Source: Bacillota bacterium (GTDB lineage: Bacteria > Bacillota_I > Bacilli_A > RF39 > UBA660). Taken from it: a stretch of DNA of 64,000 nt. Under the pieces are notes generated by a model. That model made no database searches, was not told where the DNA came from, and saw only the letters and a list, made by a program, of their open reading frames with translations. Each line of letters begins with the position of its first letter. Position 1 is the first letter of the stretch. Location of the stretch: contig SVAX01000001.1 of assembly GCA_015059155.1 (NCBI GenBank), forward strand, positions 26,247 to 90,246. The letters run 5' to 3'. This document shows, piece by piece, positions 14,590-41,885 of this stretch. The translations under genes were made by a program, and so were the position numbers.

Positions 14590-15120
14590 CTAATTAAATT
14601 TTCCTATTTTAGTAAATGGAAATATTCTTATTGTTGTAGTTCCAACTATATCTTCTTTTTTTATTAAACCTACAGTATAATCTCTACTATCTCTAGAATA
14701 ACCTCTATTATCTCCCATTACAAAATAATAATTATCCGGAATATTATCAACATTATATAATTCTTTTAATGAAAAATCATTTGTGCGAGCAGTTGCAACA
14801 TCTTCAAGTTTTTCTCCATTGATATATAGTTCATTGTCTTTATATTCAATAGATTCTCCTGGTAACCCAATTACTCTTTTAACTAATTTAGAAGTTTTAC
14901 CATCAAATTTTACATTAACAACTACTACATCAAATCTTTCATATTCTGTATCTAATTTATTTAATATTAATATATCTCCATTTTTTAAAGTAGAATCCAT
15001 AGAAGAACCATCTACTCTTACTGGAGTAGCAATGAACGTTCTAAAAAGAACTACTACTACGACTATTACTACATAAGGATATAATTCTTTTATTATTTTT
15101 TTTAATTTTTCTTTATTCAT
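14590..15120 (-). CDS. lepB: Signal peptidase I
   Basis: S26 motifs GSSMDSTL, KRVIGLPGE and GDNRGYSRDSR. I place the start at the ATG at 15120 behind AGGTGA. Confidence 0.9.
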   Translation of the reverse strand: MNKEKLKKIIKELYPYVVIVVVVVLFRTFIATPVRVDGSSMDSTLKNGDILILNKLDTEYERFDVVVVNVKFDGKTSKLVKRVIGLPGESIEYKDNELYINGEKLEDVATARTNDFSLKELYNVDNIPDNYYFVMGDNRGYSRDSRDYTVGLIKKEDIVGTTTIRIFPFTKIGKFN

Positions 15121-15157
15121 TTTATCACCTAACAAAAATAAGGCTAAAGCCTTATTT

Positions 15158-24884: not shown

Positions 24885-27038
24885 TTATAACATATTTTCT
24901 GAATTTATTCTTATATTATTAATCCCTATTTCAAAATAATTCTCATCTAATTTAGTTCTTTTATAGTCATAAATATACATTAAATTATTTTTGATTTTTA
25001 TTTTATATTTATTATTGAATCTATCAATTAAATAACCTTCATCTACTTTATATTTTTTTAACATATTATATTTACAAACCATTGCTTCTATATTAGCATC
25101 CACGATTACTTCTAAATTAGGATGCTTATTATATCTTTCTTTATAATTGTCTATTAAAATTCTAATTTGTTTATAATTTAATTCATGAGATAAAGTTACT
25201 TTTTTAACACCTAAACTATGTAAAAAAGCAACACTATATGAATTAGTTACATTAAGTGAAAAATCTGTATCCACAGCCTTATATTTATAAACACTACCCA
25301 AATCACTTACAAGTAATCTTTGATTATAAGCACTCAAATGTTCATTAATTCTATCTAACTTTAATACACATTTATCATCATCTATTTTATTGAATTCTTC
25401 AAGATTATCAATATAAATAATATTATATTTATCTTTAACTTTTAAATATTGTTCGTAAGTACTTATTAATATATTTTTATTGTTAGTTTTTTCAAAGTTA
25501 TCCACACATATATCATAAGCTTCTTTTTTATAATTAGTTTTGTACATCCTTGAGAAGTTTAATGTATTCATAACTTCACGTCTTAATTCATTTAATTTAT
25601 TTATTGGTACAAATATACTATCATCTTTTTCTATTTCAAGATTATCAAATTCATATATAGTATCACCTAGTTTGTTTAATTGTTCTTTTATTCTATCAGT
25701 AGTAGTTTCTGATTTTTGAGACTTTTCTACTATATAATCACTATATTTTTCAACTGTATTTTTTGCATCACTAACGATTAATTTTATAGGTTCTCCTACT
25801 TTTAAAATACATTTGCCACTTATTTTAATTTTTCTATCTATTTTTATTTTATCTTCTATTTCTTTTATTTGATTATAATCAGTAGTTTTTAATACAATAG
25901 CATTATTATCAATTGTTTCTTTAAAAGGAATACTAATTATATCACCTTTAAAAGCATTACTTACCCTATTACCATTTTTATACATAATAGTTACAATACT
26001 ACCTGTATCATTTTTACCTATTATCCTTATACCATCATTAATATTTAAATTATCATTTAATTTTATTATAGCTTGTCCTTTTTTATAATCTAAAACAGTA
26101 CCTATTTTAATACCTAAATGATTAGGTCTATATGTATTAACAAATGAATCATTTTCTTCATTAAATAAGAACCCTTTAGTAAACTGTCTATTAAACAACT
26201 TTTTCAAGTTTTTAATATCATTTTCAGTTATTTTTGTTTCTCCATATTTTACATAGTTATCTATAGCTTTACGATAAAGACTTGTTACTAAATATACATA
26301 TTCAGGTCTTTTCATTCTACCTTCTATTTTTAAACTATCTACACCACATTCAATAAGTTCTCCAATATTATCTAAAGTATTTAAATCTTTCGTACTAAGT
26401 AAATATTCATTATTACTAACAAGATCACCATCTATTTCTAAACTATATGGTTGTCTACAACTTTGAGCACATGTTCCACGATTTCCACTTCTATTACCTA
26501 TTAAAGCACTCATTAAACATTCGCCAGAATAACTCATACAAAGTGCGCCATGTACAAATATTTCTAATTCCGCATTTGTTTTATCTTTTATTTCTTTAAT
26601 CAATTCTATAGGAGTTTCACGAGCAAGTACTACTCTTTTTATACCTAACCCTTCACAAAGTTTGACACCTTCTAAATTATGTATATTGGCCTGAGTTGAA
26701 GCATGTATTTCTAAATTAGGATAAGTCTTTCTAACTAAATCTATCATACCTATATCTTGCATTATAACTGCATCTACACCTAATTGGTGTATATAATCTA
26801 TATATTCAATAAATCTATCTACTTCTACATCATATATTAAAGTATTTACAGTTATATAAACTTTAACTCCATACAAATGACAAGTATTAATAGCAATTTC
26901 TAATTCTTCACGAGAAAAATTACCAGCAAAACTTCTGGCACCAAAATTTCTACCTGATAAATAAACTGCATCACAACCTGCATTTATAGCAGCCTTTAAA
27001 CATTCCATATTTCCTACGGGAGCAAGTAACTCTGGCAT
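24885..27038 (-). CDS. Peptidase U32 family protein (long, two-module form)
   Basis: MPELLAPVGN...AGCDAVYLSG N-terminus and an E..VHGALC block typical of U32. I place the start at the ATG at 27038 behind AGGTGA. Confidence 0.8.
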   Translation of the reverse strand: MPELLAPVGNMECLKAAINAGCDAVYLSGRNFGARSFAGNFSREELEIAINTCHLYGVKVYITVNTLIYDVEVDRFIEYIDYIHQLGVDAVIMQDIGMIDLVRKTYPNLEIHASTQANIHNLEGVKLCEGLGIKRVVLARETPIELIKEIKDKTNAELEIFVHGALCMSYSGECLMSALIGNRSGNRGTCAQSCRQPYSLEIDGDLVSNNEYLLSTKDLNTLDNIGELIECGVDSLKIEGRMKRPEYVYLVTSLYRKAIDNYVKYGETKITENDIKNLKKLFNRQFTKGFLFNEENDSFVNTYRPNHLGIKIGTVLDYKKGQAIIKLNDNLNINDGIRIIGKNDTGSIVTIMYKNGNRVSNAFKGDIISIPFKETIDNNAIVLKTTDYNQIKEIEDKIKIDRKIKISGKCILKVGEPIKLIVSDAKNTVEKYSDYIVEKSQKSETTTDRIKEQLNKLGDTIYEFDNLEIEKDDSIFVPINKLNELRREVMNTLNFSRMYKTNYKKEAYDICVDNFEKTNNKNILISTYEQYLKVKDKYNIIYIDNLEEFNKIDDDKCVLKLDRINEHLSAYNQRLLVSDLGSVYKYKAVDTDFSLNVTNSYSVAFLHSLGVKKVTLSHELNYKQIRILIDNYKERYNKHPNLEVIVDANIEAMVCKYNMLKKYKVDEGYLIDRFNNKYKIKIKNNLMYIYDYKRTKLDENYFEIGINNIRINSENML

Positions 27039-29784: not shown

Positions 29785-31217
29785 AGAACAAAAGTCAAAA
29801 TAAATTTTGACCTGCCTAACTTCACAGTTAGGCTTTTCTACTTCATTGAAGTTTTTACTTCTCCATAGACCAGTTTCGGATAGTTGCTACCCTACTTATT
29901 TTTATCTGTCAAAATTTAACTGACTTGCAGTTCTATTCCTTTCCTCATATATATTTTTATTCCTTCAAACATTATATTTATACTTGCATTTATATCTCTA
30001 TTATTAATGTTGGTACAATTTGGACATTCCCACTTTCTTATATTTAAATCTTTCACTTTCTTTTCTTGATATCCACATCTTGAACATATTTGACTACTTG
30101 GATAATATGTTTCTATTTGGTAAAACTTTTTGTTTCTCCATTTACTTTTATATTCTAATTGTCTTATTAGCTCATACCATGATGCATCATATATTTTCTT
30201 TGAAAGATTTTTGTTTTGTACCATTTCATTAATTTTCAATTTCTCTGTTACTATTATATCATTATCAGTAACTAGTTTTTTAGAAATTGAATGTATGAGA
30301 TATTTTCTTGCGTTCTTTATTTTTTTATATACTGTTTGAAGTTTTTTTATTATCTTATATCTATTCTTACTTCCTGGCTTACTTCTTGACAACCATCTAT
30401 TTAATCCTTTTAATTTCTTTTCATATTTTTCTATTATATGTTTATTCTCTATTGTTTCTCCATCACTTGTTATTATTAAATCTTTTATTCCTAAGTCTAT
30501 TCCTATTATTTTTGTAGGGATAAGTTTAGGAATTGTAATATATTGTTCTACACATATACTTACATAATATTTTCCGGCTTCTTTATAAATAGTCGCATTT
30601 ATTATTTTTCCATTTATTTGGTTTAAGTTTCTATATCCTCTAATTTTTACTTCTTTTAATTTAGGTAGTTTTATTACTCTATTTTCTAAATCTATACTTA
30701 TACTATTATAAGTTTTTCCTTTATATGTACTTGTTATATTATTTGTTCTATATGATGGTCTTGTTTTTGTTTTTGATTTAAACTTTGGATATTCACTTAA
30801 TCCTTTACTATATCTTTTAAAACTATCTTCCAAATTAAATATACTACATCTAAGTAAACAGCTATCTACTTCACTTAACCATTCTTTTTCTTTTATTAAG
30901 TTTGGTATTTCTTTTATTACGTTATAACTATTTATATAATTTTTATTTTTACCTAAGAAATAGTTATAGATATATCTAGAACATCCAAAGCTTTTTTCTA
31001 TTAGTTCTATTTGTTTATCATTTGGATATAATCTAAATACATATCCTTTCATTATTTTTTTCATATACCAAACTCCCTTTATCATTAATGTATTAACATT
31101 ATAACAAAAGAACATTTGTTTGTAAATGAAATTTATGTGAAACTTTTATGAAATTACCAAGCACTTTCCTATTATATAAAAAAAGTTATAAACTTGCATC
31201 AAAATATAAACTGCATC
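29785..31217 (-). mobile_element. IS200/IS605-family element of the IS1341 type (tnpB only, no tnpA); boundaries approximate
   Basis: A TnpB ORF with structured ends: hairpins CCTAACTGTGAAGTTAGG and GTCAAAATTTATTTTGAC downstream of tnpB, and TTGAT pentanucleotides at the left end. It is wedged between two terminators. Confidence 0.65.
29916..31064 (-). CDS. tnpB: TnpB (OrfB) RNA-guided endonuclease-like transposon protein
   Basis: MKGYVFRLYPNDKQIELIEKSFGCSRYIYN N-terminus, RuvC-I GIDLGIKD, the zinc finger CSRCGY..CPNC, and RuvC-III NRDINASINI. I place the start at the ATG at 31064 behind AAGGGAG, because the TTTACA-17-TATAAT promoter lies inside the longer track ORF. Confidence 0.85.
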   Translation of the reverse strand: MKKIMKGYVFRLYPNDKQIELIEKSFGCSRYIYNYFLGKNKNYINSYNVIKEIPNLIKEKEWLSEVDSCLLRCSIFNLEDSFKRYSKGLSEYPKFKSKTKTRPSYRTNNITSTYKGKTYNSISIDLENRVIKLPKLKEVKIRGYRNLNQINGKIINATIYKEAGKYYVSICVEQYITIPKLIPTKIIGIDLGIKDLIITSDGETIENKHIIEKYEKKLKGLNRWLSRSKPGSKNRYKIIKKLQTVYKKIKNARKYLIHSISKKLVTDNDIIVTEKLKINEMVQNKNLSKKIYDASWYELIRQLEYKSKWRNKKFYQIETYYPSSQICSRCGYQEKKVKDLNIRKWECPNCTNINNRDINASINIMFEGIKIYMRKGIELQVS

Positions 31218-32663: not shown

Positions 32664-33053
32664 TTACTTCTTTTTTATCGGTTTAATAATTAAATGATTA
32701 TAAGCACCTGTACTTAATACTTTTTCTTCGCCTTCAAAAATTTTACCTGTTAAAATTCTTCCTTGTAAATCAACTATTTCACTTCTTAATATCGATTTAG
32801 ATAATTCATATAAACTTTTTTTATAAAAATTTTGATCATTCTTATTTTGGGCATTTTCTATTAAATTATTTAGCTTATTAAATCTATCTTCTAAGCTTTT
32901 TACACTATATATTTCATGTACATCAAATTGTTTATTATATAATATAACCAATTCTTCTCCTGGCTCTCTTTTTGTAGTAGCAGGTATACATATTCTACCT
33001 TTTTTATCTACACTTATTTCTACTTGCCCAAATAATGGTTTTTCTCCAAACAT
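32664..33053 (-). CDS. MraZ-like (SpoVT/AbrB-type) DNA-binding protein, not linked to rsmH
   Basis: Two DxxGR repeats (VDKKGRICIP and VDLQGRILT) in a 129-aa protein starting MFGE, as in MraZ. Confidence 0.6.
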   Translation of the reverse strand: MFGEKPLFGQVEISVDKKGRICIPATTKREPGEELVILYNKQFDVHEIYSVKSLEDRFNKLNNLIENAQNKNDQNFYKKSLYELSKSILRSEIVDLQGRILTGKIFEGEEKVLSTGAYNHLIIKPIKKK

Positions 33054-33103
33054 TTTAATTCTCTCCTTTGCCGGATAATATTATACATGATTTTTTAAAA
33101 ATG

Positions 33104-34135
33104 TCAAAGCTTTTCTTTATTACTATTTAAAAAATATATGTAAGCTAATTTATTGTTAATTATCATGTATACAACAATGTTCTCCCTTTTATAGCACAAT
33201 ATAGGTAAATGTAACTCTTTTTGTATATCAATCATACTTTTAAAATATAAAGTTTTTATACATACAATATCTTTATCTTTTGGTAATGCATTTATTGGTA
33301 CAACAATATTTTCATAATCCTTCATTATTTTTCTATATTTAAATTCTAAATAATGAGATTTTTTAAATTTAAAAAACTTCTTTAATTCAAAAATTATAAG
33401 TACTATAAATATTGTTACACTAGCTATTATTAATATATTTAATAATAATTCTTTTATGTTTCTATTATTACTTAAAACTTTACCTTTATATTCTTTATTA
33501 CTACTATTTATAGAAAATGTGTTTTTTTCAAGAGGTAAAGTAAGAGTGTATTTATACTCTTCCTTTTGATTATTTTCAAATTCTACAAATACTTTTAATT
33601 CTAATAATAACTTAGATTTTACCGCTATATTTACAGAATTATTATATTCTTTTGCAATATTATTGTAATAATCATAATTTAATGAAACTTTATCTTTTAT
33701 ATAAAATACATTAGAAAAAGTATTAGTATAATTATAATTTATTAATTTTTGTTGTTTTCTAAAAACTTCTTTATTCTCTATTGATGAATCATCTAATTCT
33801 GAAATAACATAAGAATTTATTTCATATTTATATTTAAAATTTATATTTTCATCTAAAGTAAATTTATAATCTAAATCTACTAAAATATTATTTACTGTAG
33901 AAGATACAAACAAAGATTGATTACCAGTATTATCTCCAGTTATCATTCCTGGTTTAGCTTCTATTTCATAATTCATTTTTCCATCTAAAATATAATTTGA
34001 TAAACTATCATTATTATCTATATTAGTTTTAATTATAAATAATATAGTACAAATACCAAATAAACTAATTAAATATATTATAAATTTATTATAAATTTTA
34101 TTCATCTTAAACACACTATCACCACTTCTATCCAT
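33104..34135 (-). CDS. Hypothetical bitopic membrane protein (TM, about 200 aa extracytoplasmic beta-rich domain, TM, about 95 aa cytoplasmic tail)
   Basis: Hydrophobic segments FIIYLISLFGICTILFII and LLLNILIIASVTIFIVLIIF. It overlaps the signal peptidase gene by 8 nt. Confidence 0.55.
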   Translation of the reverse strand: MDRSGDSVFKMNKIYNKFIIYLISLFGICTILFIIKTNIDNNDSLSNYILDGKMNYEIEAKPGMITGDNTGNQSLFVSSTVNNILVDLDYKFTLDENINFKYKYEINSYVISELDDSSIENKEVFRKQQKLINYNYTNTFSNVFYIKDKVSLNYDYYNNIAKEYNNSVNIAVKSKLLLELKVFVEFENNQKEEYKYTLTLPLEKNTFSINSSNKEYKGKVLSNNRNIKELLLNILIIASVTIFIVLIIFELKKFFKFKKSHYLEFKYRKIMKDYENIVVPINALPKDKDIVCIKTLYFKSMIDIQKELHLPILCYKRENIVVYMIINNKLAYIYFLNSNKEKL

Positions 34136-35267
34136 TTAATACTTCATACATAAACATTTTAATACTTCCTAAATATTTAATATGAAAAATATATTTCCCC
34201 TTTATATCACTTAATTTTACTATTTGATTATCATTATTTTCGTTATTATCACCTTTTGTTATAATCCCATTATCTTGTATATTTACAATTCTATGTATAA
34301 TTGTATTTTCATTTTTATCATAATAAACAATTATATCACCTATATTTAAATTATCTTTTTCTTCTTCATTTAATTTTTTATAAACAATCGTATCACCTTT
34401 AGAATATAATGGCTGCATACTATTTGAAAGGATAGCTATCGATCCATATTTAAACACACCACTATAACCTAATATTATTAATACTATAATTAACATTATA
34501 GGTGTATAACTCAGCAAATTTTGCTTAGTATGATCTTGATAAACTTTAGAAATATCCAGTTCATGGTATTTATCAATAATTAAATAAACTATAACTGGTA
34601 AAGACGTATTTATCATACCACTTATAAAAAAATTTAAATTAGGTACTATTGGTATAAAAATAGAATAAATAGTAATTATTAATTTATATATTATTGATAT
34701 TTTATAACTAGCAATACTAGTTAAATAAGTTAACACAAGTTCTAAAGATATAAGAGGAATTAAATTAAGACATAAAAATTTTAAAAATGATTCTCCACTT
34801 ATAAAAACACTATTTAAACTATTAAAATTTAAATTTATCAATATAAATAATATACTAATAACAAACCTTATTTTATTTGAATTACTAGAATAATTACAAA
34901 GTACTCCCCTAATATATTCTTGAAATATAATTGGTAAAATAAATATATATACATTTTTTAATATATATTTTAAACTATCATTTTGATATACATTATAACT
35001 AAATCCAAATATTAATCCTAAAGAAAAATGTATTATTAAATATATAATTAATATTATAATAACTGTATATATTTTATCTTTCTTATCATAAAAATGATTA
35101 TAATCTGAATGTGTTATAAATATTCCTATAATAAAAATTATAAACCAAATTATAGGTATTATATTTGTTATCATAGGAATCATATTTATAGCACTTAAAA
35201 TTTTAATAAAAAGAAAGCAAATTATAATTATATACAAAGATTTAGTATTACTATTTATTTTTTTCAT
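34128..35267 (-). CDS. SipW-type (ER/archaeal-type S26B) signal peptidase fused to an N-terminal polytopic membrane domain of about 260 aa
   Basis: The C-terminal 110 aa carry SNSMQP (catalytic Ser), IIHRIV (His) and TKGDNNENND, as in SipW/Sec11-type peptidases. They are preceded by about 8 hydrophobic segments. Confidence 0.7.
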   Translation of the reverse strand: MKKINSNTKSLYIIIICFLFIKILSAINMIPMITNIIPIIWFIIFIIGIFITHSDYNHFYDKKDKIYTVIIILIIYLIIHFSLGLIFGFSYNVYQNDSLKYILKNVYIFILPIIFQEYIRGVLCNYSSNSNKIRFVISILFILINLNFNSLNSVFISGESFLKFLCLNLIPLISLELVLTYLTSIASYKISIIYKLIITIYSIFIPIVPNLNFFISGMINTSLPVIVYLIIDKYHELDISKVYQDHTKQNLLSYTPIMLIIVLIILGYSGVFKYGSIAILSNSMQPLYSKGDTIVYKKLNEEEKDNLNIGDIIVYYDKNENTIIHRIVNIQDNGIITKGDNNENNDNQIVKLSDIKGKYIFHIKYLGSIKMFMYEVLNG

Positions 35268-35287
35268 AATTTGCTCCTTTTTATTTA

Positions 35288-36178
35288 TTAATATACAAAA
35301 TACGATAAAGTTATTTCATTTGATGCGAATTGAATATAATTAGATTCATCAGATGCAATTACAAATTCTAGCGAATGTAGATTACCATCTTTTAAATTAT
35401 CCCCAGGGGTAAACGAAATATTATTAGAATTATAATAGTTATTATAATAACTTTCTCCTTGAGTATAAACTTGATAACTAACCTTTTCATATTCCCCGTC
35501 ATCAACTGACATATATAAGTGACAGTTTTCACCATAAGTTACCCCTTCTGGCAAATTAATTACTTCTATCTCAAAGGATTCATCACGATGGTCTGTTCCA
35601 AACACTATATAAGGTTGCGCAGAATTTATTTCTTCATCAATTACTTGTTGAGTGTTAAATGTAATCGAAATATCACTTGTAGTTTCACCAGATAATGCAT
35701 CTGAGTAATTATAAGATAAATTAACAATATATTTAACATTTTCGCCTGGAGATAAAGTAACATTTGTTAGATCTATAGGAGTATCTAAAGTTATATCTGT
35801 TGATCCATTTTTTACTATATCAATATTATCAAATACTGCAGCTATACTTCCTTTATTTTCAATTGTTACAAGATATGTTATAGATGTATCTAATCCTAAT
35901 CTTACATTAAAATTAGCAGTATCTGAAGTATATGATGGTTTTTCTATTTCAGCAACATCGCCTGTTATAAAAATTTCGCCTGCTCCCTTTCCTCCAGAAA
36001 AAAAAGTTCCATCATTATCTAATCTTTCAATTCCAGTAATTTCAACGTTAAAGTCAGAATCTATAGTAGCACTTCCTTCTATTTTTAATTGTTTTGATAA
36101 AATGGAATAACCTACTCCCATACCTAAAACAACAAACAATAATAATGCTATAACTACTATTTTTTTATTTTTTCTCAT
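35288..36178 (-). CDS. Secreted beta-rich protein, candidate SipW substrate (TasA/camelysin-like role)
   Basis: N-terminus MRKNKKIVVIALLLFVVLGMGVGYSILSKQLKIEGSATI, followed by a Thr/Ser/Asn-rich region predicted to be beta. It lies directly upstream of the SipW-type peptidase. I place the start at the ATG at 36178 behind AGGTGA. Confidence 0.55.
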   Translation of the reverse strand: MRKNKKIVVIALLLFVVLGMGVGYSILSKQLKIEGSATIDSDFNVEITGIERLDNDGTFFSGGKGAGEIFITGDVAEIEKPSYTSDTANFNVRLGLDTSITYLVTIENKGSIAAVFDNIDIVKNGSTDITLDTPIDLTNVTLSPGENVKYIVNLSYNYSDALSGETTSDISITFNTQQVIDEEINSAQPYIVFGTDHRDESFEIEVINLPEGVTYGENCHLYMSVDDGEYEKVSYQVYTQGESYYNNYYNSNNISFTPGDNLKDGNLHSLEFVIASDESNYIQFASNEITLSYFVY

Positions 36179-36279
36179 TTTATCACCTACCTTTCTATGA
36201 TAATTATAGCACAAAGTTAACGACGTGTCATTAATTTTTGCAGAAATTTGTCGAATTTTAGGAAATAAAAAAAGAAGAT

Positions 36280-36519
36280 TTAATCTTCTCTATCAACATT
36301 AATAAATAATTCATCATCAAAAAATTCGCTAAGTGTTATTCCTAAACCATCACATATTCTAATTATTGTAAGTAATTTAGGATTTTTAGATTTACCATTT
36401 ACTAAACTATCAACTGTACTTTGTGTTAGGCATGAAATACTAGCTAACTTATTTATTGTTATATCTTTTTCTCTTAAAATTTTATTTATTTTTTCAGACA
36501 TTGCTTCAGTTATTTTCAT
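36280..36519 (-). CDS. XRE-family helix-turn-helix transcriptional regulator (SinR-like size)
   Basis: HTH_3 signature (INKLASISCLTQSTVDSLVNGKSKNPKLLTIIRICDGLGITLSEFF), with its own terminator. Confidence 0.75.
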   Translation of the reverse strand: MKITEAMSEKINKILREKDITINKLASISCLTQSTVDSLVNGKSKNPKLLTIIRICDGLGITLSEFFDDELFINVDRED

Positions 36520-36605
36520 TGAAATCACCTAAGTTAATTGTATAGTTTTATTAGTAAATTATATTAACGTTGTATCGTTAAAATGGTTTAAAAAAAAGAA
36601 AGATG

Positions 36606-37151
36606 CTATATATATAGTGTCTCTTTCTTTTTGTTTTTATTCATTCTTTTATTTAAATTATATAATATAACTTCATGACTCTCTAATGATTTAGGTACAT
36701 CTATTATTCTTTGATTACTAGAACCTCTAAATTCTAAATCCATACTTTTTTTATCTAGTTCAAATTTACCATCTATAAGTACATCTATATTACTTAGAAA
36801 ATCTAATATATCTTTATTTCCTTTATTAAGTAATTCTTCAAAAGTAAATCCTGTATATGCCCATACATTCATACCTAATTCTTGAACTTTTTTAGCTAGT
36901 ATACTACACTCACGAGCTTGAAACATAGGATCTCCTCCTGAAAATGTAACACCATCTTGACCAGATAAATTTTCTAGTTCTTCTATTACATCTTCTATAT
37001 CTACTAAATCTCCTCCATTAAAATCATGAGTTTGCGGATTATGGCATTTATAACAATTATGAGAACAACCTTGAGTCCAAATAACAGTTCTTATACCAAG
37101 TCCATCTACTATACTATCTGTTTGTAAATCTGCAGCAAGTCTAATTTTCAT
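36606..37151 (-). CDS. nrdG: Anaerobic ribonucleoside-triphosphate reductase activating protein
   Basis: Radical SAM CSHNCYKCHNPQT. Its start overlaps the stop of the preceding small ORF (TAATG). Confidence 0.9.
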   Translation of the reverse strand: MKIRLAADLQTDSIVDGLGIRTVIWTQGCSHNCYKCHNPQTHDFNGGDLVDIEDVIEELENLSGQDGVTFSGGDPMFQARECSILAKKVQELGMNVWAYTGFTFEELLNKGNKDILDFLSNIDVLIDGKFELDKKSMDLEFRGSSNQRIIDVPKSLESHEVILYNLNKRMNKNKKKETLYI

Positions 37152-37321
37152 TATTTAGCACACTTACTAGTAGACATCAATTCTTTAACGCCAGTGTGTT
37201 TTACACGATCTTTTTCTTCTGCTCGTTTACCATTGTTGAAACGTTTAACATCTCCACTTAAGTATCCTGTAACTCTTCTAATTCTTTCGAATCCTACACC
37301 TTCACCAACTAATTTTTCCAT
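37151..37321 (-). CDS. Stand-alone glycyl-radical domain of class III ribonucleotide reductase (56 aa)
   Basis: My own translation: MEKLVGEGVGFERIRRVTGYLSGDVKRFNNGKRAEEKDRVKHTGVKELMSTSKCAK. RRVTGYL...FN.GK..E...RVKH is the NrdD C-terminal glycyl radical motif. It is preceded by GGAGGA and is in frame with nrdD, 4 codons after its TAA. Confidence 0.75.
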   Translation of the reverse strand: MEKLVGEGVGFERIRRVTGYLSGDVKRFNNGKRAEEKDRVKHTGVKELMSTSKCAK

Positions 37322-37333
37322 AATATATCCTCC

Positions 37334-39634
37334 TTAACATCCACATTGAAAGTTTTTAACTTCTTCAAGTGGTACTGAATCAAATTCTTTACGACCACAT
37401 CCTGGACAAACATCACCAATTACCCCTACATATCCACAAACTGGATCTCTATCTACTGGATGGTTAATTGCACCATAACCAATTCCAACTTCTTTCATTG
37501 TTCTAATTACACTTTCAAATGCATCCACATTCATAGCTGTATTTCCATCAAATTCAATATAAGAAATATGTCCTCCATTTGTTAAGTTATGATATGGAGC
37601 TTCTGTTTCAAGTTTATGTTTGATAGAAGTATTATAATAAACTGGAACGTGGAATGAATTTGTATAGTAACCTCTATCAGTTACACCTTTAATTTTTCCA
37701 TAGATTGCTCTATCTATGTTTACAAATCTTCCTGATAATCCTTCTGCTGGAGTAGCTATTAAAGTAAAGTTTAAATTATAATCTTTAGAAAACTCATTGG
37801 CTTTTTCTCTCATAAATCCAATTATTTCAAGACCTAATTTTTGAGCTTTTTCTGACTCACCATGGTGTTCTCCAATTAAAGCTTTTAAAGTTTCAGCAAG
37901 TCCTATAAAACCTAAAGTTAAACTACCATGTTTTAATATTTTTCTCATTCTATCTGTTGGTTTTAATTTATCTCCATCTGTCCAAACACCTTGTTCAATT
38001 AAGAATGGGAAGTTATAACATCTTTTATTACATTGAATTTCAAATCTTTCAAGTAATTGATCCCTAACAAGTTCCATAGTCTCTCCAAGTTCTTTATAGA
38101 AACCATCCATATCTGCTTTAGTTCTTTCTTTTAAACAAATACCATGTTTAATAGCTATTCTAGGTAAATTTATTGAAGTAAATGATAAGTTACCTCTTCC
38201 ACCTGTTGTTTGATTATTTAAATCAGTTACATCACTCATAACACGAGTTCTACAACCCATATAACCTACTTCTGTTCTATAATCTCCTGGTTTATAGAAT
38301 TCTAAATTAAACGGAGCATCTAAAAATGAGAAGTTTGGAAATAATCTTTTAGCAGATACTTCACAAGATAATCTAAAGATATCATAGTTTGGATCTTCAG
38401 TATTAAAGTTAACTCCTTCTTTAACTTTAAATATTGATACTGGGAATATTGGAGTTTCTCCTTTTCCTAATCCTGCATCTGTAGCTTTTAAGAAGTTAAG
38501 TGAAACCATTCTTCCTTCAGGAGATATATCTGTACCAAAGTTAATAGATGAGAATGGTACTTGCGCTCCTGCTCTAGAATGCATTGTATTTAAGTTATGA
38601 ATAAATGCTTCCATAGCTTGATAAGTTAACCTATCTGTTTTAGCTAGTGCTTTTTCATATGCTTTAGTAAATAATCTTTCTATTTGTTCTGATTCTTTAT
38701 ATATAGGTTTAAATATTTCTATACTAAAATTAATACTTTCTAATTTATCTATTTCACGAGCTACTCTATCCATACTTATATGAGAAAGTAATCCTTCTAA
38801 ATCAAGATAATCACTTATTTGTTGTTTAAATTGTTTTTTAAATGTCATAAGTACTCCAGGTGCCATAAAATAATCAAATGCAGGAATACTTTGTCCACCG
38901 TGTTGATCATTTTGATTTGCTTGAACAGCTATAGCAGCAAGAGCACTAAAAGATGCTATATCTTTAGGTGGTCTTAAATAACCATGACCTGTTGAAAAAC
39001 CTTTTTTAAATAATCTATCAAGTTCTATTTGCATACAAGTTGTAGTTCCCATTGCAAGGAAGTCCATATCGTGAATATGTATTTCTCCATTATCATGAGC
39101 ATCAGAAAATTTTTTCTTAACAAGATATGCTTTTGCAAATTCTTTTGATACAGTTGAACCATATTGAAGCATAGTTCCCATTGCTGTATCTCCATCTACA
39201 TTTGCATTTTCTCTTTTTGTATCATCTTCTGAAGCTGATTTAAGACCTAATCCTTCAATAGTTTTTAAGAATTTATGCATTCTTTTATCATCTATAAACA
39301 TTTCTCTTGATTGAGCTCTTCTATCTCTATATTCAGCAAAAGATACATATACTTCTTCATAACCTTTTTTCTTTAAAGATACTTCTATTAAATCTTGAAT
39401 TTCTTCTATTTTTATTTTATCAGTATAATTTTTCTCTATTGCTTTTATTACTTCATTATATACTTTAGTAATATCTTTATCATCATACTTATACTTTCCT
39501 GTTTCTTCATCTTGTTCATTTACACTGTCAAAACCTTTTTTAATAGCTAAAGCTATTTTTGTACCATCAAAATCAACTTTTTTACCATTTCTTTTGACTA
39601 CTACTAATTCTAATTTTTCTTCTACCTCTGTCAT
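37334..39634 (-). CDS. nrdD: Anaerobic ribonucleoside-triphosphate reductase, large part lacking the glycyl-radical tail
   Basis: N-terminal ATP-cone (VVKRNGKKVDFDGTKIALAIKKGF), the class III RNR core, and a C-terminal Zn ribbon (CPGCG ... CGC) followed immediately by TAA. I place the start at the ATG at 39634. Confidence 0.85.
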   Translation of the reverse strand: MTEVEEKLELVVVKRNGKKVDFDGTKIALAIKKGFDSVNEQDEETGKYKYDDKDITKVYNEVIKAIEKNYTDKIKIEEIQDLIEVSLKKKGYEEVYVSFAEYRDRRAQSREMFIDDKRMHKFLKTIEGLGLKSASEDDTKRENANVDGDTAMGTMLQYGSTVSKEFAKAYLVKKKFSDAHDNGEIHIHDMDFLAMGTTTCMQIELDRLFKKGFSTGHGYLRPPKDIASFSALAAIAVQANQNDQHGGQSIPAFDYFMAPGVLMTFKKQFKQQISDYLDLEGLLSHISMDRVAREIDKLESINFSIEIFKPIYKESEQIERLFTKAYEKALAKTDRLTYQAMEAFIHNLNTMHSRAGAQVPFSSINFGTDISPEGRMVSLNFLKATDAGLGKGETPIFPVSIFKVKEGVNFNTEDPNYDIFRLSCEVSAKRLFPNFSFLDAPFNLEFYKPGDYRTEVGYMGCRTRVMSDVTDLNNQTTGGRGNLSFTSINLPRIAIKHGICLKERTKADMDGFYKELGETMELVRDQLLERFEIQCNKRCYNFPFLIEQGVWTDGDKLKPTDRMRKILKHGSLTLGFIGLAETLKALIGEHHGESEKAQKLGLEIIGFMREKANEFSKDYNLNFTLIATPAEGLSGRFVNIDRAIYGKIKGVTDRGYYTNSFHVPVYYNTSIKHKLETEAPYHNLTNGGHISYIEFDGNTAMNVDAFESVIRTMKEVGIGYGAINHPVDRDPVCGYVGVIGDVCPGCGRKEFDSVPLEEVKNFQCGC

Positions 39635-39663
39635 ATATATACTCCTATTCTTTCTACAGTTTA

Positions 39664-39692
39664 AGTATATCATTCACATGTTTTATAGTCAA
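39664..39692 (-). promoter_or_regulatory. Promoter of nrdD
   Basis: On the minus strand: TTGACT, a 17-nt spacer, then TATACT. Phased A-tracts lie immediately upstream. Confidence 0.5.
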
Positions 39693-39850: not shown

Positions 39851-41236
39851 TTATATTTTTTTGATTTTTATATCAAAATAAAATTTAGTTCCACTACCTT
39901 TTTTACTCTCTACTCCATAGTTAAAGTTGTGCAGTTTTAATATATCTTTCACTATCGAAAGACCAAGCCCTGTTCCATAAGTAACTCGTTTATATCTTTT
40001 ATCTACTTTATAATACTTATCCCATATATATTTAATATCTTTTTCATCTATTCCATTACCAGTATCAATAATCTCTACTCTAACTATATCATTAATTTTA
40101 AATAATTTAACATAAACTTTTTTATCTTCACCAGTATAATTAATCGCATTGTTAATTAAATTATAGATTGTTTGCTGCATCTTCTTTTTATCTGCAGTGA
40201 TATCTATATCAAATCCTTCATAGTTAATTATATATCCATCTTTTTCACATAATATTTCGAATTTATTTATTATTTCTTTTATAAGCCCATTTAAATTAAA
40301 TTTTTCTAAATTTAATTCAACTGATTTGGATTGTATTTTAGATAAATCAAGTATATCTTCAACAAGTAAATTTAATCTATCTACCTCTTCTATAATTGTA
40401 TTTAAATTTTTTTCTCTTTTTTCTTTATTTTTATATGTTAAATCTTTAACCATTTCAGCGTTAGCTTTTATTAACGTTAAAGGCGTCTTTAAATCATGAG
40501 ATACATTAGCCATTAGATCCCTTCTTAATTCTTCTGTTTTAGAAAGTTCTATAGCCATTTCGTTTAATGATTCTTCTAATTCTGTTATCTCTGTTATATC
40601 TGAATTACTACCAAATACTACATCATAATTTCCTTTACTTATTTCTTTACTAGCTTTATTTATTTTTTCCATAGGTTTAGATATTTTTTTTGATATTATA
40701 TTCCCTATTAAAAGAGCTAATAATAAAACTATTATCATAATCTGTATTAATTGTCTTTTTAATACTGATACAGTTGAACCAATAGGTTCTAGTGATGTAC
40801 TTATAAATGCATAAGTACCATCTTCTATTTTTACTCCATATATTAATGTTTTATTTTTAAAATTAGGATGAATTACTTTATAAGTTATAGATTTTTTATC
40901 ACTTAACATAAACTCTAACTTATAGTTATTTATTTCTCTACTATTTATTAAACATCCCCTAGTCGCACTATCTGTGGAATATGCTATACTATTATTTTCA
41001 GTAATCTCTATACATACATCTTTATCAAATGAAAGTTTATTTAATTGTTCAGAATAATCGCCACTAGTATAAGTTTTTGATACTATAGTAGCTATATCTT
41101 TAATCTCACTTTTTTTACTTAATTCATAATATAGATCAAGTGATAATATTTGTAAAAACCATATGCCACATATAATTACTATTGCAAATATAAGTAAATA
41201 AAACCATACTTTATTTTTTAACTTACTTTTCTTCAT
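39851..41236 (-). CDS. Two-component sensor histidine kinase
   Basis: Two TM segments, HAMP, HisKA (SHDLKTPLT), and an HATPase with N, G1 and G2 boxes (NAINYT, DTGNGI, GTGLGLS). Confidence 0.85.
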   Translation of the reverse strand: MKKSKLKNKVWFYLLIFAIVIICGIWFLQILSLDLYYELSKKSEIKDIATIVSKTYTSGDYSEQLNKLSFDKDVCIEITENNSIAYSTDSATRGCLINSREINNYKLEFMLSDKKSITYKVIHPNFKNKTLIYGVKIEDGTYAFISTSLEPIGSTVSVLKRQLIQIMIIVLLLALLIGNIISKKISKPMEKINKASKEISKGNYDVVFGSNSDITEITELEESLNEMAIELSKTEELRRDLMANVSHDLKTPLTLIKANAEMVKDLTYKNKEKREKNLNTIIEEVDRLNLLVEDILDLSKIQSKSVELNLEKFNLNGLIKEIINKFEILCEKDGYIINYEGFDIDITADKKKMQQTIYNLINNAINYTGEDKKVYVKLFKINDIVRVEIIDTGNGIDEKDIKYIWDKYYKVDKRYKRVTYGTGLGLSIVKDILKLHNFNYGVESKKGSGTKFYFDIKIKKI

Positions 41237-41885
41237 ATTTATATCCTATACTTCTTACAGTAGTTATTAAATTTCTATATTCACCTAAACCATTTCTTAA
41301 CATTTTTATATGTGTATCTATTGTTCTATCATCTCCATAAAAATCATATCCCCATATTTTACTAAGTAAAGTTTCTCTTGATAAAGCAATACCTTTATTT
41401 TGTACAAAGTATACTAATAATTCATATTCTTTTGGTGTTAATTTTACTTCTTCATCATTTATAAGTACATTATGGCCTAAATAATTTATTTTTAAATTCT
41501 TATAAATATATTCATCATTATTTGTTTTATTTCTACCAGTTACTACTTTAATACGAGCCATTAATTCTTTAGGACTAAATGGTTTAGTAACATAATCATC
41601 TACTCCTAAATCAAAACTTTGTAGTTTGTCGAATTCATCAGCTCTAGCCGATAGCATTATTACTGGTATATTATATGTCTCTCTTATTTTTTTTAATGTT
41701 GTATAACCATCCATTTTAGGCATCATTATATCTAGCACTATAACATCTACATCATTATTTTTTTCTAACTTTTCTAAAGCCTCTATTCCATTACTTGCTT
41801 CTAAAGTAGAATATCCTTCACTTATTGAATATTCTTTTATAACTTCTCTTATACCCTTTTCATCATCTACTATTAATATTTTCAT
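41223..41885 (-). CDS. OmpR-family response regulator
   Basis: Receiver domain (ILIVDDE, DVIVLDIMMPKMDG) plus a winged-helix output domain (LTPKEYELL). Confidence 0.9.
   Translation of the reverse strand: MKILIVDDEKGIREVIKEYSISEGYSTLEASNGIEALEKLEKNNDVDVIVLDIMMPKMDGYTTLKKIRETYNIPVIMLSARADEFDKLQSFDLGVDDYVTKPFSPKELMARIKVVTGRNKTNNDEYIYKNLKINYLGHNVLINDEEVKLTPKEYELLVYFVQNKGIALSRETLLSKIWGYDFYGDDRTIDTHIKMLRNGLGEYRNLITTVRSIGYKYEEK

Follow-up and report, generated by a model that had tools for sequence, protein, structure and literature searches.

A three-gene locus from an uncultured gut Bacilli that probably encodes an AbpX-type surface-fibre or matrix cassette

A 64,000-nucleotide stretch of a Bacillota contig (GenBank assembly GCA_015059155.1, contig SVAX01000001.1, forward-strand positions 26,247 to 90,246; referred to as the window) contains a gene cluster that probably constitutes a bacterial surface-fibre or matrix cassette of the AbpX type, i.e., one belonging to the TasA superfamily. 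Its core consists of a secreted subunit, a many-helix signal peptidase I (SPase I) and a DUF5305 protein, and the locus is a new variant working like the AbpX system instead of a strict AbpX family member. A first-pass annotation of this DNA had likened the cluster to the Bacillus tapA-sipW-tasA operon and its repressors SinR and AbrB, a parallel that is an analogy only. Its core idea, i.e., that an endoplasmic reticulum (ER)/archaeal-type SPase dedicated to a substrate with an unusual signal peptide is encoded together with that substrate as part of a fibre or matrix system resembling that of TasA, is supported. The suggestion that the system might be of an undescribed kind did not hold, since AbpX-type systems, known mainly from archaea, have already been described for bacteria too, bioinformatically (bioRxiv 10.64898/2026.01.04.697558; PMC12518558).

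Layout of the locus

All coordinates are positions in the window, and all cassette genes lie on its minus strand. The four co-oriented genes listed in the first pass are present, i.e., those for a helix-turn-helix (HTH) regulator (36280..36519; 79 aa from its ATG; Pfam HTH_26 at 1.8e-11 and HTH_3 at 2.5e-8), the secreted subunit (35288..36178; 296 aa), the SPase I (34128..35267; 379 aa; TIGR02228) and a DUF5305 (TafG-like) bitopic protein (33104..34135; Pfam PF17231). Together with an MraZ-like gene on the same strand (32664..33053; 129 aa, a single domain; Pfam MraZ at 2e-4, below threshold), they fall within 32664–36519. The G+C content of the window is about 25% throughout. Genetic code 4 was rejected, since reading TGA as a stop codon gives a length that matches the homologues.

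The gaps within the unit formed by the subunit, peptidase and DUF5305 genes are short and the ribosome-binding sites plausible; the 20 nt between subunit and peptidase contain an AAGGAG ribosome-binding site and no hairpin. Elsewhere in the window, a housekeeping SPase I of the bacterial type is encoded (14590–15135, minus strand; TIGR02227 at 1.4e-42). Since a general SPase I is thus present, the polytopic peptidase of the cassette is an additional, dedicated enzyme.

The subunit, peptidase and DUF5305 genes form a conserved unit

Close relatives of the secreted protein were few, with only 18 (33–54% identity) in a collection of 5.8 billion sequences. Seven distinct contigs were retrieved for relatives of the subunit (L001–L005, L007 and L013), and the order of a subunit gene followed by one for a 366–386-aa peptidase was kept in all seven. 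The DUF5305 gene was checked in the gene tables of six of these contigs, with L007 being checked for subunit and peptidase alone, and a DUF5305 gene of 333–334 aa came next after the peptidase in 6/6. Four further loci (L009–L012) were chosen solely via distant homologues of the peptidase (30–39% identity). A DUF5305 gene directly followed the peptidase gene in each of the four, and immediately before the peptidase gene lay one or two small genes that matched the hidden Markov model (HMM) of the subunit family (1e-32 to 1e-56). One of these loci carries a tandem subunit pair, and another has an extra 548-aa family member after the DUF5305 gene.

Altogether, all ten of the distinct related loci that were compared had kept the subunit–peptidase–DUF5305 trio, and at least five different flanking contexts were represented among them. 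The trio is flanked by nrdDG and lspA-rluD in L001–L004 and by serS and sepF-divIVA in L005; in L013, nrdG is present and the genes downstream are unrelated. Because the trio recurs in 10/10 loci across such varied flanks, the gene arrangement is not due to chance, and the conserved unit therefore consists of three genes. The four-gene synteny envisaged in the first pass was accordingly found for this core, but not for the HTH gene, which was seen only in the window and, at the same position, in its nearest relative L013, being absent from L001–L005. The HTH protein of L013 is 87% identical to that of the window, whereas its subunit is 54% identical. Finally, a genome scan with the profile of the narrow subunit family (A1, the window's own subfamily) yielded a single Hadza-gut Bacilli metagenome-assembled genome, and the taxonomy is therefore only approximate.

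The secreted subunit belongs to a large family

The subunit has a single N-terminal hydrophobic segment, and its mature part is rich in Ser, Ile, Asn and Thr. Its leader (MRKNKK) lacks a twin-arginine (RR) motif. Four segments can be distinguished, i.e., a predicted signal peptide (aa 1–25; 36104–36178), a predicted donor strand (aa 26–44; 36047–36103), a putative AbpX-like beta-sandwich (aa 45–185; 35624–36046) and an extra beta-sandwich (aa 186–296; 35291–35623). The A1 alignment revealed a near-invariant GMGVGYSILSKQLKIEG, and the small residues G23 and S25 occupy positions –3 and –1 of the predicted cut. An alternating hydrophobic pattern runs from L31 to I47 and is co-linear with W2–I12 of AbpX. 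The AlphaFold2 (AF2) monomer model (predicted local distance difference test, pLDDT, of 85.5) shows a helix at residues 3–32, low confidence at residues 29–39, and beta-sandwiches at residues 45–178 and 190–294.

An exhaustive profile search for the wide family (A7) retrieved 2,445 cluster representatives (50% identity) at E ≤ 1e-3, of which approximately 27 were full-length, the remainder sharing residues 1–185. Many members measure 165–200 aa, and others have long, varied C-terminal extensions. The N-terminal consensus of the wide family reads M-[AGS]-[VI]-G-[YF]-[AS] before the predicted cut and [ALIV]-[LFY]-S-x-x-L-x-I-x-G-T-A-x-I-x-S-x-W-x-V-x-I-T after it. No Pfam or NCBIfam model covers the family, for which only sub-threshold matches to CARDB, DUF11 and choice-of-anchor-D models were obtained; faint sub-threshold matches to the TasA and BsaA models occurred in three and two of 32 members, respectively.

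Some members of the wide family fuse the signal/strand/beta-sandwich module to CBM2, Listeria-Bacteroides repeats or an ALK/LTK-type glycine-rich domain (e.g., L009 7176–7988, L010 10213–11868, and proteins P0041, P0036 and P0038), and one 5,081-aa protein contains 29 beta-sandwich repeats. Since the module is found fused to other domains, it may have a second use as a handle for display or anchoring.

The subunit is linked to AbpX only through an intermediate family

To compare the subunit with AbpX, the sequence of the latter was taken from the supplement of bioRxiv 10.64898/2026.01.04.697558 and combined with five database relatives (one of them labelled 'CARDB domain-containing protein' in UniRef) into an AbpX family profile. 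The narrow A1 profile aligned with the wide family (HHalign 100%, E 7e-44), and the wide family in turn with the AbpX family (HHalign 95.9%, E 5.8e-9, 155 columns), the latter also when signal peptide and donor strand were removed (HHalign 86.7%, E 4.4e-6). Moreover, a single-target hmmsearch of the wide-family HMM against AbpX gave 13.3 bits (p = 3e-6). The link between subunit and AbpX is thus transitive, running at profile level via the wide family.

The mature N-terminus of AbpX, QWSETLSLSATI following TYA according to a PrediSi prediction (bioRxiv 10.64898/2026.01.04.697558), aligned with ILSKQLKIEGSATI following GYS in the subunit, with a shared pattern of hydrophobic residues at every second position. 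In addition, the AbpX donor strand is likewise a low-confidence region in the monomer model, and AbpX-like proteins have a pI of about 4 and about 15% Asp and Glu (both PMC12518558; bioRxiv 10.64898/2026.01.04.697558), an acidity shared by the mature subunit (pI of 4.05; 16.1% Asp and Glu).

Up to E 0.1, the subunit had no match to the Peptidase_M73/TasA, NF046066, TapA or TIGR04088 models, and searches of PDB sequences with both the narrow (A1) and wide (A7) profiles returned nothing relevant, AbpX itself not turning up. The statement that the substrate bears no recognisable similarity to TasA thus agreed with the model searches, but missed the remote TasA-superfamily similarity via AbpX.

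A polytopic signal peptidase with intact catalytic residues

The peptidase passed the model of archaeal-type SPase I (TIGR02228; 85.2 bits vs. a cut-off of 51.85), and S281/S283, H325, D340 and D346 (motifs SNSM, HRI and GDNN) were invariant in 35 homologues, confirming the ER/archaeal-type Ser–His enzyme that had been proposed for this gene. That description had omitted approximately eight additional N-terminal membrane helices. The peptidase portion covers only residues 248–372 of 379, and residues 1–247 are strongly hydrophobic. Two parts can thus be delineated, i.e., an N-terminal membrane domain of about eight transmembrane (TM) helices (aa 1–247; 34527–35267) with invariant N105, E117, R120 and P206, and a TM anchor plus ER/archaeal-type catalytic domain (aa 248–379; 34131–34526) with S283, H325 and D340/D346. 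Correspondingly, the AF2 model (pLDDT of 85) comprised eight N-terminal helices, one anchor helix and, at the C-terminus, a short helix. The best Foldseek match of the catalytic domain was human SEC11C (7p2q_A, E 5.6e-5). Since the catalytic residues are intact, a SipA-like non-catalytic pilus chaperone was rejected.

When the peptidase family was compared with the 380-aa peptidase encoded next to AbpX in Pyrodictium abyssi, which the cassette enzyme resembles in length and layout, HHalign reported 98.9% probability (E 1.7e-17, 304 columns), and the invariant FQEYIR aligned with GREMVR of the archaeal enzyme. In that archaeal locus, AbpX is followed by this 380-aa Peptidase_S26 protein, and DUF5305 is lacking. 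The dedicated SPase I of AbpX-like loci in archaea and bacteria has been described as having ten TM helices (PMC12518558; bioRxiv 10.64898/2026.01.04.697558).

Foldseek matched the N-terminal domain to MmRce1 (4cad; E 0.017–0.05, probability 0.99, TM-score 0.48–0.51, 254–266 columns). The invariant E117-x-x-R120 of this domain lies in helix 4, which we take to match the place of the EExxxR motif in the fourth helix of Rce1. Even at E 10, a Pfam scan of the domain found no family, CPBP (PF02517) included, and the 35-sequence alignment contained no conserved His in it. Among the residues critical to Rce1 (E140, E141, R145, H173, H227 and N231; PMC5874806), only the Glu-x-x-Arg has a counterpart in the peptidase, the conserved His/His/Asn being missing. 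This makes a structural lead of moderate strength towards a CPBP-like scaffold that is probably non-catalytic. The AbpX preprint does not mention the resemblance to Rce1.

The DUF5305 protein as a putative accessory subunit

The 2-TM protein, reported in the first pass as having no recognisable similarity to TasA, TapA or camelysin, matched Pfam DUF5305 (PF17231; 8.4e-15, 55.2 bits vs. a cut-off of 29) and is thus a DUF5305/TafG family member that is not TapA-like. Its TM segments span aa 17–35 and 230–248. Starting at ATG 34135, its ORF overlaps the stop codon of the peptidase, as annotated before, but the start may instead be ATG 34105 (333 aa) because the homologues measure 333–334 aa. In haloarchaeal Tat-fimbriae (Tafi), the DUF5305 protein TafG is encoded with the dedicated peptidase TafD (PMC11821415), and DUF5305, often present in AbpX-like loci, is a proposed 'SPase accessory' of both Tafi and AbpX loci (PMC11821415; bioRxiv 10.64898/2026.01.04.697558). 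By analogy, the protein encoded here is proposed to be an SPase I accessory subunit.

Promoter, palindromes and the HTH regulator

A sigma-70-type promoter for the three-gene operon was predicted upstream of the subunit gene (ATGACA-17-TGcTATAAT; 36203..36231, minus strand), matching the consensus at 11/12 positions and containing an extended –10 TG. Of all sigma-70 matches in the region, the two that score highest are intergenic; this one ranks second, after the 12/12 promoter of the MraZ-like gene, and is kept in L013.

The –35 box of this promoter is overlapped by the palindrome TTAATGAC-AC-GTCGTTAA (36217..36234, unstranded), a candidate HTH operator, and a second palindrome, TTAACGATACAACGTTAA (36564..36581, unstranded), lies upstream of the HTH gene as a candidate autoregulatory operator. 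The shared motif TTAAYGA-N4-TCRTTAA (≤1 mismatch) occurs twice in the window vs. 0.36 times expected, both times in a promoter flanking the HTH gene. L013 has both equivalent sites, with arms kept and centres diverged, its site at the –35 box being a perfect TTAACGAT-GT-ATCGTTAA. Because the palindrome is kept in both flanking promoters, also in L013, the HTH protein is probably an autoregulated local regulator in this lineage.

This regulatory role is as much as could be retained of the SinR parallel. The 79-aa protein is a bare XRE domain without a SinR-type oligomerisation domain, its match to the SlrR model is a generic one (24.8 bits vs. 250), and it is not a SinR orthologue. The gene had also been credited with its own terminator. 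An AT-rich hairpin with a T-run does follow it (36264..36291, minus strand; 8-nt perfect inverted repeat AGAAGATT/AATCTTCT), but at –7 kcal/mol and z –1.4 this is a weak terminator-like element, and a strict scan for G+C-rich terminators found none in the region, the hairpins being AT-rich and weak.

Proposed mechanism and competing explanations

Taken as a probable AbpX-type cassette, the locus would function as follows. A single promoter would drive the three genes, probably gated by the HTH protein via the palindrome over the –35 box, and the 296-aa pre-protein would be exported by Sec. The conserved end of its signal peptide, G-M-G-V-G-Y-S, would then be recognised and cut after Ser25 by the polytopic SPase together with its DUF5305 accessory, exposing an amphipathic N-terminal strand (ILSKQLKIEGSATI...). 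By homology to AbpX, donor-strand complementation would follow, the freed strand of one subunit entering the beta-sandwich of the next, and the product would be an acidic fibre decorated on the outside by the second, family-specific beta-sandwich.

A bolder extension, tentative and in its full form unlikely, would assign a wider task to the membrane proteins: the eight-helix N-terminal domain, as a degenerate Rce1/CPBP fold whose invariant Glu-x-x-Arg is embedded in the membrane, and the DUF5305 protein might form a dedicated processing and assembly machine that holds the signal peptide/donor strand of its client and hands it over to be polymerised or displayed at the surface, while the N-terminal module of the subunit would be a widespread display or pilus handle of Bacillota, present in at least 2,400 clusters (50% identity). 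If true, this would add a third surface-fibre route in Bacillota besides sortase pili and type IV pili.

Several results weigh against a fibre of the AbpX type. The direct comparison of A1 with AbpX was not significant (HHalign 8.8–18.8%), making the intermediate family necessary, and the N-terminal domain of the peptidase taken alone did not significantly match the P. abyssi enzyme (E 0.064). At positions 2 and 4 of the donor strand, where an aromatic and an acidic residue are conserved in AbpX-like proteins (bioRxiv 10.64898/2026.01.04.697558), the subunit has Leu27 and Lys29 as equivalents of Trp2 and Glu4 of AbpX; among 122 wide-family sequences, 51 have F or Y at position 2, and T, Q, S or K occupies position 4. 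It is because of this missing signature, together with the weak direct similarity, that the subunit is not filed as a strict AbpX family member. The structure prediction recommended for 35288..36178 did yield two beta-sandwiches, but Foldseek searches of the PDB with this model returned generic Ig-like (immunoglobulin-like) folds only (best E 1.6e-3), and no TasA, AbpA or thread subunit was among the top 50. Moreover, neither the locus nor the window contains a gene for a minor subunit, a tip or an anchor (SLH, LPXTG or sortase). As to the regulatory part, promoter and terminator calls are consensus matches in a genome of 25% G+C, and promoter-like sites overall were no more numerous than in shuffled sequence.

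Some of these results would also be expected if the subunit were a monomeric secreted or surface protein, i.e., an adhesin or binding protein whose conserved N-terminus is a recognition element for the peptidase and which forms no fibre. The generic Ig-like, adhesin or S-layer-type character of the Foldseek matches, the adhesin- or enzyme-like C-terminal modules of the wide family (CBM2, Listeria-Bacteroides repeats, glycine-rich domain), the presence of a single subunit gene in the absence of tip and anchor genes, and the missing Trp2/Glu4 residues would all fit such a protein. Nevertheless, the L-x-I-x-G-T-A-x-I stretch after the cut is as conserved as the cleavage region itself and aligns with the experimentally defined donor strand of AbpX, many wide-family members of about 170 aa consist of a signal peptide, a strand and one beta-sandwich as a pilin would, and some related loci carry tandem subunit paralogues, so that we consider a non-fibrous subunit improbable, if a serious alternative. 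It is even less likely that the hydrophobic helix of the subunit is retained, as a membrane anchor or type IV pilin-like helix, while the polytopic peptidase domain acts as a processing or assembly platform. The hydrophobic segment and the stretch following it are far better conserved than ordinary signal peptides, the subunit shows a weak match to UpsA pilin (E 0.02), and one membrane helix of the polytopic domain holds a Glu and an Arg that are both invariant. However, the locus has neither the prepilin-peptidase motif (G/A at –1 after a charged leader) nor PilD/PibD, ATPase or platform genes, and the published mass of mature AbpX places its cut at the corresponding position of the alignment. 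Because the SPase I catalytic residues are invariant, a real cleavage at the outer face is argued for, which makes helix retention very unlikely. A type IV pilin/prepilin system as such was rejected, since PilD and ATPase genes and a class III signal are absent, and so were sortase pili, the window containing no LPXTG protein or sortase.

The least probable explanation, and one we consider extremely so, is that of a true counterpart of tapA-sipW-tasA under SinR-like and AbrB-like repression, as the first-pass annotation had it. Both systems share the logic of an ER-type SPase dedicated to its substrate with an XRE-family HTH gene next door, and the faint TasA and BsaA matches in the wide family point the same way. 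Against it, all membership models were missed: there was no TasA/camelysin, TapA or SipW-cognate-signal hit, and the peptidase scored 54.4 bits vs. a cut-off of 190 with the SipW equivalog model (NF046067), from which its 247 extra N-terminal residues, with eight extra TM helices, also set it apart. The fourth gene encodes a DUF5305 protein, a family not known to occur in Bacillus. Moreover, the HTH gene is missing from most loci (found only in L013), which leaves the SinR parallel unsupported, and the AbrB parallel fails as the MraZ-like gene forms a separate transcription unit behind a 12/12 promoter of its own and does not occur in L001, L002, L005 or L013.

Neighbouring genes

The promoter of the MraZ-like gene (TTGACA-16-TATAAT; 33080..33107, minus strand) overlaps the stop codon of the DUF5305 gene. 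Having its own hairpin and T-run as well, this gene is a neighbour and not part of the cassette. A weak MraZ-like homologue is located at the same place in L003 and L004 (29% identity over 75 aa, E 5e-7).

Upstream of the cassette, the anaerobic ribonucleotide reductase NrdD is split. A 779-aa ORF (37334–39673, minus strand) covers model positions 3–715 of 746, and the C-terminal glycyl-radical motif RVTGYL is located on a separate 56-aa ORF 12 nt downstream (37151–37321, minus strand; model positions 712–744). The same ORF, of 56–57 aa, also comes after nrdD in L001–L004 and L014–L017, with an IS110 transposase between the two pieces in L003. A WalK/PhoR-like histidine kinase and an OmpR-family response regulator (39851–41885, minus strand) lie upstream of nrdD, as does the same pair in L003 and L004; no evidence of a link to the cassette was found. 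On the other side, a TnpB RNA-guided endonuclease of the IS200/IS605 family (29916–31115, minus strand; NF040570 at 296.6 bits vs. 100) is located just downstream of rluD.

Significance and comparison with known systems

Donor-strand fibres of the TasA superfamily are emerging as a matrix scaffold common to bacteria and archaea, and in the literature searched, experiments on the AbpX branch, with its many-helix SPase and DUF5305, have been confined to a hyperthermophilic archaeon. The locus described here probably represents AbpX-type machinery pared down to three genes in uncultured low-G+C gut Bacilli, with a subunit belonging to a very large family not covered by any Pfam or NCBIfam model. 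Such a minimal cassette in a large uncurated family is therefore a compact system for experimental questions, such as the roles of the extra membrane domain and of DUF5305, fibres without calcium-clamp residues, and matrix or adhesion structures of gut bacteria.

Compared with tapA-sipW-tasA of Bacillus subtilis (PMC9674648, PMC10151520), the cassette likewise combines an ER/archaeal-type SPase dedicated to a donor-strand subunit with a nearby XRE-family regulator, but it lacks homologues of TasA/camelysin and TapA, and SipW has no polytopic N-terminal domain. In Tafi loci (PMC11821415, PMC12337348), as in the cassette, genes for a dedicated signal peptidase and a DUF5305 protein accompany those for the donor-strand subunits of the fibre, and deletion of tafD blocks both TafA processing and fibre formation (PMC11821415). 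Unlike the cassette subunit, however, Tafi subunits carry twin-arginine (Tat) signals, and TafD has four TM helices and an N-terminal peptidase domain, whereas the cassette enzyme has about eight TM helices followed by a C-terminal peptidase domain. With Rce1/CPBP proteins (MmRce1, PDB 4CAD), the cassette peptidase shares eight predicted TM helices and the invariant Glu-x-x-Arg in the fourth, but neither the FxxxH and HxxxN motifs nor a Pfam CPBP match, and the resemblance is a structural one only, of moderate strength.

AbpX loci differ from the cassette in a number of respects. The cassette subunit matches AbpX only via an intermediate family, has Leu and Lys instead of an aromatic and an acidic residue at strand positions 2 and 4, and is extended at its C-terminus by an additional beta-sandwich (about 110 aa). 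The cassette has no minor subunit, tip, anchor, kinase or cyclic di-GMP genes, and its host is an uncultured gut Bacilli of 25% G+C vs. the thermophiles and Clostridia listed in the preprint. Nevertheless, in both cases the secreted subunit is acidic and combines a Sec signal with an amphipathic strand at the N-terminus and a beta-sandwich; directly downstream of its gene comes that of a dedicated many-TM peptidase of about 380 aa, and the DUF5305 accessory gene of the cassette is one that is reported for most AbpX-like loci.

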